IMG/VR virus record: IMGVR_UViG_3300043467_001216
Origin: a virus
Taxonomy: Duplodnaviria; Heunggongvirae; Uroviricota; Caudoviricetes
Direction: 5' to 3' (one strand)
DNA: 64,000 nucleotides
The translations under genes were made by a program, and so were the position numbers. The first letter of the stretch is position 1, and each line of letters opens with the position of its first letter. This document shows positions 1,607 to 61,545 of the stretch, piece after piece. The notes beneath the pieces were generated by a model. The model was given only the letters and a program-made list of their open reading frames with translations. It did no database searches and was not told the origin of the DNA.

Positions 1607-2219
1607 TTCACACGACGAAATTAAAAGATTATTAAAAGCCTCAAGAACATTATTATCTAACGATAAATTAAATGAGGAGTATGAAGATATTAGAATCAAA
1701 TATAACATATTATCAGAACAATCAGTGGTTGGTGATAGATATAATGTTGGTCAGAGTATTGAGGATGAAATCGAAGATGACGAATATGAAACCGCAGAAA
1801 CGGAAGATGAGGAAATTGAAGATGAAGGGAGTGGTAGTGACAAGAAACAAGGTTATAGAGTTTCAGGGGGTATTTTAGTTTTACACGGTAAAGAACAAAC
1901 CGATTTAGAATTAACTACAGACGAGAAAATCACATTTCAAGAAACTATGGATGAATTTGTTACTGAAGTTTCAGATTTGGTTGATTTTAATAAACTAAAC
2001 ATTTATCCAAAAAACGTGGAGTGGTCAGGTAAAATCATTGATTTTGACATTGAATTTTATTTTAGTATTGGTGAGGAAAATGGGGTTTATATTGATAGTC
2101 AAATGGTTAAAGTTGATGAACAGTTTTTAGACTTATTAACTAAATTACAACAATACTACGAGAAATTCAAATCTAAATGGTCTAAAGTATTAGCGAGTAG
2201 AAAACGAACAACAGTATAA
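1599..2219 (+). CDS. hypothetical acidic protein
   Basis: 206-aa ORF, 8-nt overlap with upstream gene; nested ORF 1672-1878 rejected. Confidence 0.6.
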   Translation: MGNSHDEIKRLLKASRTLLSNDKLNEEYEDIRIKYNILSEQSVVGDRYNVGQSIEDEIEDDEYETAETEDEEIEDEGSGSDKKQGYRVSGGILVLHGKEQTDLELTTDEKITFQETMDEFVTEVSDLVDFNKLNIYPKNVEWSGKIIDFDIEFYFSIGEENGVYIDSQMVKVDEQFLDLLTKLQQYYEKFKSKWSKVLASRKRTTV

Positions 2220-12020: not shown

Positions 12021-12028
12021 TATATTTG
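12021..12028 (+). promoter_or_regulatory. Bacteroidetes-type -7 box
   Basis: TATATTTG only 4 nt before ATG 12033. Confidence 0.5.
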
Positions 12029-36976: not shown

Positions 36977-36985
36977 TATTTAGTA

Positions 36986-37000
36986 ATATTTATTGATATG
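36986..37000 (+). promoter_or_regulatory. ATATTTATTGATATG motif containing the start codon
   Basis: identical to 15892 and 54317. Confidence 0.5.
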
Positions 37001-52032: not shown

Positions 52033-52058
52033 TAAACCCCCTTAATTGGGGGTTTTTT
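52033..52058. terminator. bidirectional terminator
   Basis: A-run, CCCCC-ttaatt-GGGGG, T6. Confidence 0.85.
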
Positions 52059-52676: not shown

Positions 52677-53063
52677 ATGAGTAGAGTTAATTTGATTGCA
52701 TCAACAGGGTTAATCTTCAATGAAGATAAGTCAATGGTATTAGGTGTGTCACGTAAAGACGATAAAACTAAATTTGGTTTACCTGGTGGTAAGGTTGATG
52801 AAGGTGAAACAATGTATGAAGCATTGGTTAGAGAGTTGAAAGAAGAAACAGGATTGGATGTTATTAAGGCGGTCCCGATATATTTCAGAGAAGATGGTAT
52901 ATACGTGACCGTGGTTTATTTGATTAGTGAATATTCAGGTGATATATATACAGAAGAGGCCGGTGTCGTTAAATGGGTTACATTTGAAGAATTGAAACAC
53001 GGGGCGTTCTCAGAATACAATACAATGTTGGAGGAACATTTGAAATTTATAAATTATATATGA
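52677..53063 (+). CDS. Nudix hydrolase
   Basis: Nudix box GLPGGKVDEGETMYEALVRELKEETGL. Confidence 0.85.
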   Translation: MSRVNLIASTGLIFNEDKSMVLGVSRKDDKTKFGLPGGKVDEGETMYEALVRELKEETGLDVIKAVPIYFREDGIYVTVVYLISEYSGDIYTEEAGVVKWVTFEELKHGAFSEYNTMLEEHLKFINYI

Positions 53064-54031: not shown

Positions 54032-54069
54032 AATTTTCACTCAGGTGTTGTGCATATCCAAAAGATAGT

Positions 54070-54077
54070 TATATTTG
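54070..54077 (+). promoter_or_regulatory. Bacteroidetes-type -7 box driving the sRNA
   Basis: TATATTTG with no ORF downstream. Confidence 0.5.
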
Positions 54078-54083
54078 TAGTGT

Positions 54084-54306
54084 GTGAGTGTCACACAGGA
54101 TGTCAGAACTCCTAACTTACAATCTGACCATTAAGTATCAGGTGAGATGATACGGGTTGATTACCCCAACTTAGTAAGTGAAACCATCAGGATGTCAGAA
54201 CTCCTAGTTCACAATCTGACCACTAAGAATCGGGTGAGGCGGTTCGGGTTAAACACCTCAATCCAAAGGATGAAATTTAAACCCCCAAGTACATTGGGGG
54301 TTTTTT
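54084..54306 (+). ncRNA. candidate phage sRNA: 5' hairpin, two tandem 92-nt pseudoknot-like units, intrinsic terminator
   Basis: no ORF on either strand; units start at 54096 and 54188 (46 of the first 52 nt identical); AGGA/TCCT interleaved with GTCAGA/TCTGAC; terminator CCCCCAA-gtaca-TTGGGGG followed by T6; 5' end approximate. Confidence 0.6.
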
Positions 54307-54316
54307 GTTTTATCTA

Positions 54317-54331
54317 ATATTTATTGATATG
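54317..54331 (+). promoter_or_regulatory. ATATTTATTGATATG motif containing the start codon
   Basis: identical to 15892 and 36986. Confidence 0.5.
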
Positions 54332-54805
54332 AAAATAATATTAACTGAGAATAAGTTAGATAAAATAATTGAAAAATATGGTATAGTTAAAACCATTAGA
54401 AATATTGGTGGGTATAAAAATTTTGATAAAATATACCCTGATTATTTTTATTCAGGTGATACATCACAATGGGATAGAGAACGTGTTATTAATTTTTTAA
54501 ATGAATGTGTTGAGGTTAATAACAGAATAGAAAATGAATCAAGTATTTATCTTCACGACTATTGGGAAGATATCTTATATCAAAGTTGGAGTGATTATAA
54601 TGAAGATGCTGGTAGAGAGTTTCAGTATGAATCTAGAATAATGTCTATTAGTACTGATTTTGCACATACTGAAGTGTGGCAATATGATGAGGAAGGTGAA
54701 ATGTTTGATGAAGCTTACGATTATAATGATATACCTTTGAATAGATTGGAAACTAGGTTTTTAAGTAAAATATTTGGGCAACTTTGGGGGGTATTTAAAT
54801 TATGA
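54329..54805 (+). CDS. hypothetical acidic protein
   Basis: N-terminus MKIILTENKLDKIIEKY; start inside the conserved 15-mer. Confidence 0.6.
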   Translation: MKIILTENKLDKIIEKYGIVKTIRNIGGYKNFDKIYPDYFYSGDTSQWDRERVINFLNECVEVNNRIENESSIYLHDYWEDILYQSWSDYNEDAGREFQYESRIMSISTDFAHTEVWQYDEEGEMFDEAYDYNDIPLNRLETRFLSKIFGQLWGVFKL

Positions 54806-55278
54806 AGTTATTAAAATTATTATCGACATTAATTACTGAGAGTAGGTTATTTGACAGATTTGTTGTCAACGGTCTTGTTGTTGATGTAACCAGCACTCGT
54901 GAGTCTGATGTTGCGGTAATGGATAATACAACATTCGGTAGAGTTCCCAAAGAAGAAATATTAGAATCAATGAGAGATATCATTGAAGTTATTGTAACAC
55001 AAGGATTGGTGGTATTAGATACTTGTGAAAGAAGATGTGGTTTATTAGTAAGTGATTATTCAATGGGGTTCGATTACCAACTTTGGGTAACATTGAAGAC
55101 TAATAAATTAGAATTGAAAATTAACACATCAATCAAACATCCAAAACAATTATTTAACGATAAACACAAAACAAGACGTGTTATCGTAACTAGAGACGGT
55201 GAGACCGTTATCAGAGAATCATTAGAACATTATCGTTCAGTTAAAATCGGAAAAAAAATCGTTTATTTTATAGACTAA
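54802..55278 (+). CDS. hypothetical protein
   Basis: ATGA overlap. Confidence 0.55.
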   Translation: MKLLKLLSTLITESRLFDRFVVNGLVVDVTSTRESDVAVMDNTTFGRVPKEEILESMRDIIEVIVTQGLVVLDTCERRCGLLVSDYSMGFDYQLWVTLKTNKLELKINTSIKHPKQLFNDKHKTRRVIVTRDGETVIRESLEHYRSVKIGKKIVYFID

Positions 55279-55535: not shown

Positions 55536-55958
55536 ATGGATAAAAAGATTGGATTTACGTGTTCCTGTTTTGATTTATTTCATGCGGGACATATTATGAT
55601 GCTTAAAGAAGCTAAAAGTGTTTGTGATTACTTAATAGTTGGTTTACAGAGTGACCCCACGTTAGACAGACCTGAGAAGAATAAACCTGTTCAAAGTATA
55701 GTTGAAAGATTTATTCAATTGGATGCTTGTAAGTATGTTGATGAGATTGTGGTTTATGCGACAGAAAAAGATTTAATGGACGTATTGTTATCGTATCCAA
55801 TCAATGTTAGGATTGTTGGGGATGAATACGCTGAAGTTAATTTTACAGGTAAAAACTTACAACATATTGAAATTTATTATAATACAAGACGACATTCATT
55901 TTCAACAACAGAATTAAGAAAACGAGTAATTGAATTATCAAATGGACAAAGTAAGTGA
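55536..55958 (+). CDS. cytidylyl/adenylyltransferase (RfaE domain II / TagD-like)
   Basis: CSCFDLFHAGHIMMLKEAK (HxGH motif), LIVGLQSD, VDEIVVY and FSTTELRKRV match the glycerol-3-P cytidylyltransferase / heptose-1-P adenylyltransferase family. Confidence 0.8.
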   Translation: MDKKIGFTCSCFDLFHAGHIMMLKEAKSVCDYLIVGLQSDPTLDRPEKNKPVQSIVERFIQLDACKYVDEIVVYATEKDLMDVLLSYPINVRIVGDEYAEVNFTGKNLQHIEIYYNTRRHSFSTTELRKRVIELSNGQSK

Positions 55959-56482: not shown

Positions 56483-57196
56483 ATGAAAAAGAAAATTGTT
56501 GTATTCACAGGTGCTGGTGTTTCAAGAGAAAGTGGTGTCTTGACATTTAGAGATAGTGTGGATGGGTTATGGGAGAATCATAGTATTGATGATGTTTGTA
56601 CACCTTCAGGATGGAAAAAAGACCGTGAGAAGGTTTTGAATTTTTATAACGATAGACGAAGACAATTACCTACGGTTGAACCTAACTCAGCCCACACAGG
56701 TTTGGTTAAGTTAGAGGACAAATATGACGTAACAATCGTTACCCAAAATGTTGATGACCTACACGAAAGAGCGGGTTCATCTAAGATATTACATTTACAC
56801 GGTGAGTTGACTAAAGCCAGAGGTGCGATGTATAGTCATAAGACAAGTCCATTGGATAATATCGTGGTGATTGGTTATAATGATATTAACATTGGTGATA
56901 AGTGTGAGATAACAGGTTCACAGTTGAGACCCCACATTGTTTGGTTTGAAGAGATGCCATTCAACGTCGAGGAAAGTTATGACGCAATAACCGAATCTGA
57001 TGTGTTAATCATTATCGGAACTAGTTTGATGATTGGTTACACATTAAATCTATTATCAAGTGTTAGTGATGAGTGTAAGATTTATTATATTGACCCCCAA
57101 CCAAGTAGGTATTTGGACCATTTAGGTAAAGATATTACTTACATTGAGAAACCGGCAACGGAAGGTGTTGAATTAATTTTAAATGAATTGTTATGA
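56483..57196 (+). CDS. cobB: Sir2-family NAD-dependent protein deacylase (CobB type)
   Basis: VVFTGAGVSRESGVLTFRD, QNVDDLHERAG, HLHGE, RPHIVWFEE and IIIGTS are collinear with CobB; most zinc-module cysteines are absent. Confidence 0.9.
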   Translation: MKKKIVVFTGAGVSRESGVLTFRDSVDGLWENHSIDDVCTPSGWKKDREKVLNFYNDRRRQLPTVEPNSAHTGLVKLEDKYDVTIVTQNVDDLHERAGSSKILHLHGELTKARGAMYSHKTSPLDNIVVIGYNDINIGDKCEITGSQLRPHIVWFEEMPFNVEESYDAITESDVLIIIGTSLMIGYTLNLLSSVSDECKIYYIDPQPSRYLDHLGKDITYIEKPATEGVELILNELL

Positions 57197-60012: not shown

Positions 60013-60272
60013 CAACTTCGCTGGTTAATGGGGGTAGTTTGCATCTTGCAACTCAAGTGGTTAAGTTCGGCGTTAAGATATTAATCCTACTATGGTGATT
60101 GATTGAAATGTACGGCTCACACCAACCTCTGCAAGTTAAAACAAACTGTACTACACATTCAAAGATGGGTTACACAATAGAATTTATTCTATAAGATGCT
60201 GTGTCAAATTGAGATATGTGTAAGTATAACATCTGAAGTTTGCCTCAATGGTATTTTTAGTAAGATGTATTT

Positions 60273-60371
60273 AGTCAGGTGGCGTAATGGTAAAAGCGTT
60301 GGTCAGTGGGTTTAAACACCTAACGGTAAAAATGGGTACCAGATATACAGGTTCGAATCCTGTCCTGACTA
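60273..60371 (+). tRNA. tRNA-like RNA 2 (99 nt; 34-nt domain where the anticodon loop should be)
   Basis: AGTCAGG/CCTGACT acceptor; T arm ACAGG-TTCGAAT-CCTGT; TTGGT/ACCAG helix closes 34 nt; discriminator A. Confidence 0.5.
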
Positions 60372-60389
60372 CTGACAATAAAACTTTGG

Positions 60390-60442
60390 GGTCAGGGTTT
60401 TGTTGGCACTGAAAGGTGTGTGTTTTCAACGGTTCGAGTCCG
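60390..60442 (+). pseudogene. 3'-truncated tRNA-like fragment
   Basis: GGTCAGG 5' strand and CGG-TTCGAGT-CCG T-arm remnant but no 3' acceptor strand; abuts element 3. Confidence 0.4.
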
Positions 60443-60556
60443 AGTCAGGTGGCGGAATTGGTAGACGCTAACGGTGGTAAGTGTGATAGTCAGAGCTCGG
60501 GAACTCCTATCAAAAAGTTTGGTTCACACATACAGGTTCAAGTCCTGTCCTGACTA
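60443..60556 (+). tRNA. tRNA-like RNA 3 (114 nt; Leu-type D arm)
   Basis: AGTCAGG-TG-GCGGAATTGGTAGACGC is the class II tRNA-Leu 5' part; T arm ACAGG-TTCAAGT-CCTGT; core closed by GTGTGA/TCACAC; discriminator A. Confidence 0.55.
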
Positions 60557-60569
60557 CTAAAAATAAGAT

Positions 60570-60800
60570 ATGAATAATAGAGAACAAAAATTGATTGATT
60601 TAATGTTTGAAATGGTGTTAGTGACAACAAACGACCCCGTATTTTGTAAAAGACCAAGAGGTGAAAGAATGGCTTGGGTTGCAGATAATTTGAGGGGTTC
60701 GGGATTTGATACACATCCAATCGGAATGAGTTGGGGGGTTTTGGTTGACTCTTCATTCAGGGACACAATTGATGTTAAAACAGAAAATTTAGATAATTAA
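60570..60800 (+). CDS. hypothetical protein embedded in the RNA array
   Basis: 76-aa ORF between tRNA-like elements with normal amino-acid composition. Confidence 0.5.
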   Translation: MNNREQKLIDLMFEMVLVTTNDPVFCKRPRGERMAWVADNLRGSGFDTHPIGMSWGVLVDSSFRDTIDVKTENLDN

Positions 60801-60805
60801 CTAAC

Positions 60806-60949
60806 AGTCAGGTGGTGGAATGGTAGACGTGTAATGGGTGATTTGATTAATGGGGCCGTGAGACATCACATTAAATATGTTGACCATCCCCAAGAACCGA
60901 ATAAAATCGGTCTTTTCAAATCGTACAGGTTCGAATCCTGTCCTGACTG
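60806..60949 (+). tRNA. tRNA-like RNA 4 (144 nt; branched domain replaces the anticodon arm)
   Basis: AGTCAGG/CCTGACT; GGTGGAATGGTAGACG D region; 9-bp helix GTGATTTGA/TCAAATCGT abuts the T arm; inner helices TGGGG/CCCCA, GTGA/TCAC, ACCGA/TCGGT; discriminator G. Confidence 0.5.
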
Positions 60950-61119
60950 CTGAATTAGCCCTCTGGTGGTGCACCGCTAAGGAACGAAGATAGAGATTAC
61001 AGATATGGGTTGAAATAAAAAGACCTTCGGGTTTACACATATGTTGGCGTGGACGCTCTCCGAATCGTATGTCGGCATAGTTTGTGTGTTCTAGGGATAA
61101 TTTAAAAACACACATTTTT
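60950..61119 (+). ncRNA. structured spacer
   Basis: AGACC-TTCG-GGTTT (UUCG tetraloop hairpin); GTGTGTT/AACACAC 7-bp stem; GGTG-gtg-CACC; only a minus-strand shadow ORF. Confidence 0.3.
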
Positions 61120-61235
61120 AGTCAGGTGGCGGAAGGGATTGAGGTAACTCGGTCGTTGGTAGACGCACATATCCATACAGGGATGATGCAGTACTGTATT
61201 ACTGTGTCTTACAAGTTCGAATCTTGTCCTGACTA
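61120..61235 (+). tRNA. tRNA-like RNA 5 (116 nt; 21-nt hairpin inserted in the D loop)
   Basis: GGCGGAA[GG GATTGAG GTAA CTCGGTC G]TTGGTAGACGC; T arm ACAAG-TTCGAAT-CTTGT (compensated); TATCC-ATACAG-GGATG stem with 6-nt loop; variable hairpin CAGTA/TACTG. Confidence 0.55.
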
Positions 61236-61276
61236 CAAAAAATAACGAAGGTATTGTTTAATTAAATAAAAAAACA

Positions 61277-61284
61277 TATCTTTG
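61277..61284 (+). promoter_or_regulatory. Bacteroidetes-type -7 box
   Basis: TATCTTTG 12 nt before tRNA-like RNA 6. Confidence 0.45.
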
Positions 61285-61296
61285 AAATGTTAATAT

Positions 61297-61411
61297 AGAT
61301 AGGTGGCGGATGGGTAGACGCAGAGGTGAGGGGATATAGTAACACTCTGAAAGTAGCAGTCTCGTTACGTCCTACGGTGAAATCGAACAGGTTCGAATCC
61401 TGTCCTATCTA
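61297..61411 (+). tRNA. tRNA-like RNA 6 (115 nt; possible Leu-GAG with expanded loop)
   Basis: acceptor AGATAGG/CCTATCT (compensated relative to the others); D arm GCG-GATGGGTAGA-CGC; CAGAG/CTCTG closes a 19-nt loop that begins GU-GAG-G; T arm ACAGG-TTCGAAT-CCTGT. Confidence 0.55.
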
Positions 61412-61461: not shown

Positions 61462-61531
61462 AGCGGAGTAGTGTAATTGGTAACATATTGGATTGTCTCC
61501 TTTGATGTGGGTTCGAGTCCCATCGCCGCAA
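61462..61531 (+). tRNA. tRNA-like RNA 7 (70 nt; poor anticodon stem)
   Basis: D arm GTGT-AATTGGTA-ACAT; T arm GTGGG-TTCGAGT-CCCAT; acceptor has two mismatches; the anticodon region TTGGA-TTGTCTC-CTTTG pairs poorly. Confidence 0.45.
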
Positions 61532-61545
61532 CTAAAATTTAAATT

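Follow-up and report, generated by a model that had tools for sequence, protein, structure and literature searches.

A structured RNA gene of uncultured phages and its candidate protein partner

Results

An RNA gene with its own transcription signals

The IMG/VR virus record IMGVR_UViG_3300043467_001216 is a 64,000-nucleotide stretch of DNA from a member of the Caudoviricetes, referred to here as the window; it is phage-like, with an overall G+C content of 32% and densely packed, co-oriented open reading frames (ORFs). An earlier note on this DNA had proposed that positions 54070-54306 specify a non-coding RNA that runs from promoter to terminator and contains two tandem pseudoknot-like units. 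The evidence that we present on this proposal is all comparative, and on that footing the interval is a real, structured and independently transcribed small non-coding RNA gene. The same comparisons establish an RNA family with a defined fold, a predicted promoter and terminator of its own, and strict co-location with the gene for a small protein that we term family A. The features of the locus are listed below, together with the two ORFs downstream of the RNA.

54047-54050, + strand: possible −33 element GTTG, 19 nt 5' of the −7 box (weak evidence)
54070-54077, + strand: predicted promoter −7 box TATATTTG, of TAnnTTTG type, with a box at the equivalent position in most homologous loci
54082-54096, + strand: 5' terminal hairpin GUGUGA-GUG-UCACAC (perfect, 6 bp), at the predicted transcript start
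54096-54187, + strand: unit 1, covariance model match of 107 bits
54188-54279, + strand: unit 2, covariance model match of 103 bits
54279-54309, + strand: intrinsic terminator with a 10-bp stem including five G-C pairs and a T-run, called from the sequence and a local terminator scan
54329-54805, + strand: family B ORF, 158 amino acids, acidic, in multiple copies in these phages and unmatched in Pfam, PHROG and PADLOC
54802-55278, + strand: family A ORF, 158 amino acids, the second ORF downstream of the RNA

The box, the 5' hairpin and the terminator lie where the earlier note had placed them, and the sole ORF in the interval is a 56-amino-acid frame at 54147-54317. Promoters of Bacteroidota have the −7 consensus TAnnTTTG within the layout TTTG-19/21-TAnnTTTG. 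In most homologous loci a TTTG or TTG lies 19-20 nt 5' of the TAnnTTTG box, and most of the loci with such a box also have a hairpin at the 5' position, variable in sequence. The terminator (AAACCCCCAA-GTACA-TTGGGGGTTT at 54279-54303, with T6 to 54306) ranks first among the terminator-like sites that the local scan returned, and a terminator is found at the equivalent position in nearly all homologous loci. Loci of the L001 type have a TATTTAT-type box 3-4 bases before the unit rather than TAnnTTTG, and an additional consensus TATATTTG promoter 3' of the terminator; because a consensus promoter follows the terminator, the RNA in these loci would be a separate transcription unit.

The sequence TATATTTG occurs 15 times on the + strand of the window, and about ten of these copies are intergenic, compared with 24% of the window as a whole; they often lie right after terminators. 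Intergenic copies of TATATTTG(T), for example at 12021, 30295, 35948, 36969, 44230, 47045 and 59538, often follow a terminator and stand only about 4 nt 5' of an ATG, a placement that suggests Bacteroidota-type promoters and leaderless mRNAs. For TAnnTTTG as such, the counts in the window are 72 (+ strand) and 44 (− strand), against about 48 per strand in shuffled sequences. The phage promoters thus appear to resemble those of Bacteroidota, and the likely host is assigned from promoter type alone. A second recurring box, TA(n)TATTTAT, is located about 7 nt before start codons (in the window at 54310-54328 and 36985-37000), just before the family A start codon in L127-type loci and, in loci of the L001 type, 3-4 nt 5' of the RNA unit, and may represent a second promoter class of these phages. 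Between convergent genes at 52034-52055 there is a perfect bidirectional terminator, AAACCCCC-TTAATT-GGGGGTTT, with the same C-rich/G-rich design as the terminator of the RNA.

Each unit folds as an H-type pseudoknot followed by three hairpins

A repeat finder aligned 54096-54169 with 54188-54261 as a 74-nt direct repeat, 81% identical and with a spacing of 92, in agreement with the unit starts proposed earlier; by our count 45, and not 46, of the first 52 nt are identical. Every unit comprises an H-type pseudoknot (P1, 4 bp, interleaved with P2, 5-6 bp), the hairpins P3, P4 and P5, and a conserved UGAAA tail. The helices are positioned as follows.

54097-54100/54110-54113, + strand: unit 1 P1, AGGA/UCCU
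54102-54106/54124-54129, + strand: unit 1 P2, GUCAG/CUGAC
54135-54140/54148-54153, + strand: unit 1 P3, loop GGUGAGA
54154-54156/54164-54166, + strand: unit 1 P4
54169-54172/54176-54179, + strand: unit 1 P5, followed by the conserved UGAAA tail
54189-54192/54202-54205, + strand: unit 2 P1
54194-54198/54216-54221, + strand: unit 2 P2
54227-54232/54240-54245, + strand: unit 2 P3, loop GGUGAGG
54246-54248/54256-54258, + strand: unit 2 P4
54261-54264/54268-54271, + strand: unit 2 P5

The two units of the window already differ from one another in a compensatory manner, with GUAUCA/UGAUAC in unit 1 and GAAUCG/CGGUUC in unit 2 at P3, and ACUU/AAGU and AUCC/GGAU, respectively, at P5. Across 52 distinct full units, 97% of the pair cells hold standard pairs. 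Both sides change at all six pairs of P3 (6 bp, with the 7-nt loop GGUGNGN) and at three pairs of P5 (3-4 bp), while in P4 (GGG/CCY) the pairs G-C, G-U and A-U alternate, the helix being lengthened to AGGUC/GACCU in some members. Covariation as strong as that observed was reached in none of 500 column shuffles, pairing was lost when the partners were slid against each other, and the top-ranked pairs by mutual information are exactly those of P3 and P5. The GGTG...YACC hairpin that had been proposed to follow the pseudoknot did not survive this comparison: it shows no covariation, two of its four pairs are mismatched in 10 and 13 of the 52 sequences, and GGUG is instead the loop of the strongly covarying helix P3.

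P1 and P2 are invariant in close relatives, which are uninformative about them either way, and it is the diverged members of the family that settle both helices of the H-type pseudoknot. All versions of P2 found there are paired (GUCAG/CUGAC, GUUAGG/CCUAAC, GUUGGG/CCCAAC and GGUCAYGG/CCUGACC), and P1 is found in three forms, AGGA/UCCU, the G-U intermediate GGGA/UCCU and, in one separate clade, GGGA/UCCC; four rare variants disrupt a terminal P1 pair. The interleaved pairing of the earlier note is thereby borne out by covariation. The loops have classical H-type lengths, with 1-2 nt in loop 1, 2-4 nt in loop 2 and 4-11 nt in the A-rich loop 3. A nested alternative, in which G3, G4 and U6 pair with R36, Y37 and Y38 after P2, fits 99.8% of cells in close relatives, where it shows transitions only, and fails in L214, L227 and L232 (loci are designated here by L numbers); it may be an alternative conformer.

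G-U pairs are numerous and every alternative pair type recorded is standard or G-U, which is consistent with an RNA read from the + strand. Since the folding z-score of the whole transcript is an unremarkable −1.44, the case for structure is evolutionary rather than energetic. About 45 of the roughly 90 positions of a unit are invariant across the 52 distinct units. A coding function was also considered, given that the AUG within AGGAUG opens short frames, and was rejected: single nucleotides are inserted or deleted within the core of homologues (alignment columns 12-14), which rules out coding, as does the covariation pattern. Among the diverged RNAs, those of L215, L217, L221, L222 and L224 (at about 1900-2060, minus strand) have a 5' leader of about 65 nt with two extra hairpins, one of them capped by a GNRA loop and varying in a compensatory way (CAUC-GAAA-GAUG, CGUC-GAAA-GACG and CGUC-GUAA-GACG). 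An apparently conserved 19-codon upstream ORF in loci of the L215 type was dismissed, as it coincides with these compensated hairpins and is interrupted in L222.

The RNA family is found in uncultured phages

More than 50 distinct homologous units were gathered from about 110 phage and metagenome loci. An exact 17-mer from the core retrieved eight IMG/VR phage contigs, patterns for the 5' and 3' halves of the unit retrieved more loci, and a metagenome scan with helix P1 left free retrieved 54. A covariance model, R1, built from 14 units, is positive in all 54 loci of the metagenome scan; elsewhere in the 64 kb of the window nothing exceeds 13 bits, compared with 107 and 103 bits for the two units, and there was no match in about 80 unrelated viral loci (some 0.7 Mb), a negative control from a too-loose pattern that had brought in about 120 unrelated loci.

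Known families and deposited genomes gave no counterpart. At the gathering threshold Rfam 15 has no match in the region, be it riboswitch, leader, ribozyme or small RNA, and at E ≤ 10 yields solely terminator-driven chance matches; a permissive Rfam search of 13 further loci revealed no recurrent family. BLASTN with the region and a consensus unit against 50,697 deposited phage records returned chance matches only. The core pattern, run over the genomes of 185,579 bacterial and archaeal species, gave three chance matches, each of them partial to the pattern and one lying within an XRE repressor gene, so that the host copies or host type III toxin-antitoxin loci for which the earlier note had suggested searching were found neither here nor among the phage records. 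A literature search found the core sequence in no paper. The RNA family is new relative to Rfam 15 and deposited phage genomes and, as far as these data go, appears confined to uncultured phages, mostly on contigs with Joint Genome Institute (JGI) metagenome identifiers that we take to be freshwater. A catalogue of 10,006 candidate viral structured RNAs has been derived from IMG/VR (PMC10690425), and may include this motif without a function. Transfer-messenger RNA, which had been raised because it too contains tandem pseudoknots, is excluded by ARAGORN, which is negative for the units and reports only a tRNA-Thr in the window, and by Rfam, in which RF00023 is not matched in the region.

Units are combined in modular arrays

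We designate a full unit F and a half-unit H, the latter consisting of the pseudoknot and P3 only (57 nt). Of 57 distinct arrangements, 39 are a single full unit and seven were scored as two full units; three scored as FH are also two-unit arrays, in which the second unit escaped the test by having AGGUY in place of GGGUU. A half-unit is fused to a full unit (HF) in seven arrangements, and two half-units to a full unit (HHF) in one. Most arrays end in a terminator, those of L196, L172, L152, L158 and L160 being exceptions. In L196 the unit is followed within a few bases by a gene resembling a transfer RNA (tRNA), and the same probably holds for L172, where the contig ends after 29 nt; in L152, L158 and L160 the unit lies within a longer non-coding stretch. 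In the latter loci (L158 5300-6800, minus strand, and also L152 and L160) the unit is preceded by an 8-bp hairpin and followed by some 250 nt of conserved, terminator-free non-coding sequence; L158 has a second, separate unit about 1 kb from the first, and its core is a variant (CGGA...CCCU, UUGAC).

The tRNA-like gene directly 3' of the RNA in L196, and probably L172, is of the same kind as a set of five in the window. These, at 60272-61410, are about 100-150 nt long and have in common an acceptor stem (AGUCAGG...CCUGACUAC), a D arm and a T arm, with long, mutually unrelated inserts in place of the anticodon and variable region. Rfam calls two of the five tRNA (99 and 114 nt), whereas ARAGORN calls none of them, recognising only the ordinary tRNA-Thr at 61462-61532.

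Family A is found only beside the RNA

Clustering of neighbouring ORFs gave two families of proteins of about 160 residues, A and B. When IMG/VR loci were fetched with the family A alignment alone, without reference to the RNA, the RNA was found within about 150 nt of the family A gene in all 27 loci retrieved. In 18 of them the order is promoter, RNA, terminator and family A, two of these (L214 and L220) scoring only 52-53 bits with R1. In the remaining nine the RNA is a diverged one (51-57 bits), encoded immediately 3' of family A but on the other strand, and the two genes have a bidirectional terminator in common; these convergent loci have different neighbours and lack the Dam methylase and DnaJ genes. 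Distant homologues, 25-33% identical to the family A protein of the window, likewise have the RNA directly upstream in 7/7 loci with enough upstream DNA. In the opposite direction the link is looser: among loci retrieved through the RNA, family A is present within the examined flanks in 45 of 77, and the 74-223 kb contigs of the L001, L002 and L003 types are absent from the family A matches. Family A is thus found only beside the RNA, while the RNA can stand alone, an asymmetric dependence as expected of an antidote or obligate cofactor. In the convergent loci (L215-L224) the RNA cannot be a leader of the protein gene, so that for part of the RNA family, at least, a leader role that is purely cis-acting is excluded.

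The ORF on which the earlier note had focused, that of family B at 54329-54805, has no ToxN/AbiQ match in Pfam, PHROGs or PADLOC, in keeping with the note, which had not recognised it as such a nuclease; the conserved partner is the following ORF, at 54802-55278. Family B was rejected as partner of the RNA: profile comparison shows no homology with family A, and the gene keeps no constant place, since window-type loci alone have it between RNA and family A, and in those of the L001 type it precedes the RNA. It is probably not part of the system.

A conserved protein of about 52 residues, with a CxxC motif and one predicted transmembrane helix, is encoded 3' of family A in 45 loci. Its gene lies at about +540 after the RNA in L127-type loci and directly after the RNA in L002 and L006, and it is followed by a DnaJ-like gene on the opposite strand, with a divergent Dam-like methylase gene upstream. 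In the window the RNA locus is flanked by genes for a NUDIX hydrolase (52677-53063), a cytidylyltransferase-like protein (55536-55958, with a weak NMNAT-like PHROG match) and a Sir2-family protein (56483-57196), which could form a set related to nicotinamide adenine dinucleotide (NAD) or adenosine diphosphate (ADP)-ribose.

The predicted fold of family A

An AlphaFold (AF2) model of family A from a 49-sequence alignment is confident, with a predicted local distance difference test score (pLDDT) of 84.8 and a predicted template modelling score (pTM) of 0.78, and would order the chain as one strand, two helices and three long antiparallel strands. Foldseek searches with this model found nothing significant in the PDB. 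Among viral models they returned a protein from a T4-like phage labelled 'site-specific RNA endonuclease' (probability 0.98, template modelling score 0.46-0.51, E 0.08), a label that we take to be the usual annotation of RegB; the match sits among uncharacterised phage proteins. The fold matches are in all weak, to RelE-, ParE-, BrnT-, CdiA-CT- and RegB-like folds, and no ToxN/AbiQ/CptN-like fold was among the structure-model matches. With a median pI of 5.9 family A is mildly acidic, and the conserved residues include E13, D85 and E139 (100%), R47 and Y155 (97%) and D91 and H113 (87-89%). That family A is a ribonuclease is at this point a lead suggested by the model, and not a finding.

Discussion

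A model for the RNA as a trans-acting partner

According to the reading that we prefer, transcription would begin a few bases after TATATTTG, at a stabilising 5' hairpin, span the two units of about 92 nt and end with the intrinsic terminator, for an RNA some 225 nt long. This RNA would act in trans as the partner of the family A protein, each pseudoknot and P3 module binding the protein and either keeping it inactive or directing it, and the terminator would set a high ratio of RNA to protein. An adjacency that survives rearrangement, the asymmetric dependence and the variable number of repeats all suggest that the RNA acts in trans together with family A, and the F, FF, HF and HHF arrays are as expected of repeated binding modules. 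We infer the physical binding, the direction of its effect and the ribonuclease nature of family A. We accordingly put forward tentatively that the RNA and family A are partners and, as the sub-mechanism that we favour, that the RNA has an antidote-like role; the chances of this proposal fall only a little short of even. We are distinctly more doubtful of its most specific form, a new class of toxin-antitoxin-like module in lytic freshwater phages in which the RNA would neutralise or guide an endoribonuclease with a RelE/RegB fold.

Several observations weigh against a partnership. The RNA is kept in contigs of 74-223 kb with no detected family A, beside tRNA-like genes and inside longer non-coding stretches. 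Its core, with some 45 invariant positions, is far more conserved than family A (25-40% identity), which suggests a further contact of the RNA, one that varies less than this protein, and part of the adjacency is possibly inherited gene order because all of the phages are related. Family A itself has no match among Pfam, PHROG, PADLOC or PDB sequences, its comparison with the profile of T4 RegB by hhalign was null, so that an assignment to RegB by sequence was rejected, and its acidic pI and mostly acidic invariant residues are unlike those of the basic RelE, RegB and ToxN nucleases.

Alternative explanations

The same contrast in conservation favours the main rival, an autonomous trans-acting RNA aimed at a conserved host component, which might be the ribosome, RNA polymerase, a tRNA-processing enzyme, a defence protein or a small signalling molecule, with family A merely an accessory or a syntenic neighbour. 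The RNA is present without family A in at least eight types of context, and it is co-transcribed with a tRNA-like gene in L196 and probably also in L172; numerous unpaired bases that are conserved, and a pseudoknot loop rich in A, are characteristic of aptamers and complex folds, and the motif is absent from the bacterial genomes scanned. What this explanation does not account for is the constant presence of the RNA beside family A in two gene orders, and on balance we consider it unlikely, while taking it seriously. A cis-acting leader, that is, a riboswitch or attenuator that senses a ligand or protein and controls the terminator at 54279-54306, would fit the terminator followed by co-oriented genes 20-50 nt away in most loci and the lack of a consensus TAnnTTTG between terminator and first ORF in window-type and L127-type loci. 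Tandem aptamers are known among riboswitches. Moreover, the invariant GGGUU of P4 can pair with AACCC in the 5' arm of the terminator in about 20 of 47 truncated folds. This complementarity is possibly incidental because a C-rich 5' arm is the general style of terminators in the phage (52034, 51446), and an antiterminator role for GGGUU was rejected on the grounds that the C-rich arm recurs in unrelated terminators and that GGGUU is still invariant in L196, L172 and L152/L158/L160, where there is no terminator. Nor would a leader be expected to end at a bidirectional terminator with no gene downstream, as in the nine convergent loci, or to be followed by a separate consensus promoter, as in L001-type loci; half-units (HF, HHF) would be senseless as aptamers, and the downstream genes vary, none of them being metabolic. 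A leader function is therefore improbable.

A self-cleaving ribozyme or processing module that cuts multi-unit or RNA-tRNA precursors to unit length is suggested by the dense invariant unpaired nucleotides around the pseudoknot, by units that lie head to tail or directly before a tRNA-like gene and by the extra hairpins capped with GNRA tetraloops in the long variants, and small ribozymes are common in phages. We nevertheless hold it to be very improbable, for no Rfam ribozyme model is matched even at E ≤ 10, no conserved junction sequence besides the UGAAA tail separates the units, and most loci have a single unit and hence nothing to process. The earlier note had compared the locus to the antitoxin RNAs of type III systems and to phage-borne decoys of them. 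In this it was partly right: the layout is that of a promoter, tandem pseudoknot repeats, a terminator and an ORF, and the repeat number differs between loci. Membership of the known families is another matter: no protein like ToxN, AbiQ, CptN or TenpN was recognised in Pfam, PHROGs, PADLOC or by fold, the units are 92 nt long and mostly single, and no Rfam antitoxin family is matched. A decoy of a host antitoxin is also unlikely, because none of the 185,579 species genomes carries the core, barring the three chance pattern matches. A classical type III antitoxin (ToxI, CptI or TenpI), or a phage pseudo-antitoxin directed against a ToxN-like toxin of the host, is thus largely refuted already, and we give it almost no weight.

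Implications

Phage-encoded structured RNAs with known roles are very few, and the family described here, with its well-supported fold, unusual conservation, modular repeats and single associated protein family, offers a testable RNA-protein pair. Were family A a RegB/RelE-like nuclease controlled by the RNA, the logic of RNA antitoxins would be carried over to a new toxin fold and into lytic phages, and the pair would be a model for how phages restrain their own ribonucleases. The RNA would then be the 'anti-RegB' partner speculated on for T4, the system would be the first of type III-like design with a toxin unlike ToxN, and in phages that have only the RNA it would serve as an antidote to related nucleases from hosts or rival phages. 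Even if the partnership fails, the RNA is a good candidate for a new aptamer or ribonucleoprotein, and the locus also documents Bacteroidota-type promoters in uncultured freshwater phages.

Comparison with known systems

The unit has the architecture of preQ1, SAM-II and similar H-type elements, with a short stem 1, a loop 1 of 1-2 nt, a stem 2 of 5-6 bp and an A-rich loop 3, along with many invariant unpaired bases, but it differs from this class in having no Rfam match, no consistent class of downstream gene and a stand-alone gene in several contexts. A 2010 review noted that no riboswitch or trans-acting small RNA of T4 had been functionally characterised and that the roles of RNAC and RNAD were unknown (PMC3014915). 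Those two stable RNAs (species 1 and 2) resemble the present family in being small, stable and structured phage RNAs of unknown role, with two related copies adjacent (PMC3014915). They are transcribed with tRNAs, and the RNA described here precedes a tRNA-like gene in L196 and probably in L172. They were rejected as relatives, there being no similarity by BLAST or by R1, which finds nothing in the tRNA region of T4 and gives at most 9 bits anywhere in T4 60000-74000.

The RelE/YoeB-like early ribonuclease RegB of T4 differs from family A in showing no sequence or profile similarity to it and in being basic, where family A is acidic. No RNA partner of RegB is known; a review of T4 has raised the possibility of an antitoxin-like partner for it (PMC3014915). 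The closest parallels are with type III toxin-antitoxin systems (ToxIN, CptIN and TenpIN), from which the present system departs in several ways. Family A is not a nuclease of the Kid/MazF-like ToxN family, the units are 92 nt long with three extra hairpins rather than 34-45 nt, one unit is the rule (39 of the 57 arrangements), RNA and protein genes are convergent in nine loci, and the RNA is much better conserved than the protein. Moreover, type III systems reside on plasmids and chromosomes, whereas that described here lies in large phage genomes of lytic type. What the two share is the succession of promoter, tandem RNA repeats, intrinsic terminator and protein gene, pseudoknot-forming units in variable number, a protein gene strictly tied to its RNA gene, and orphan RNAs in phages.

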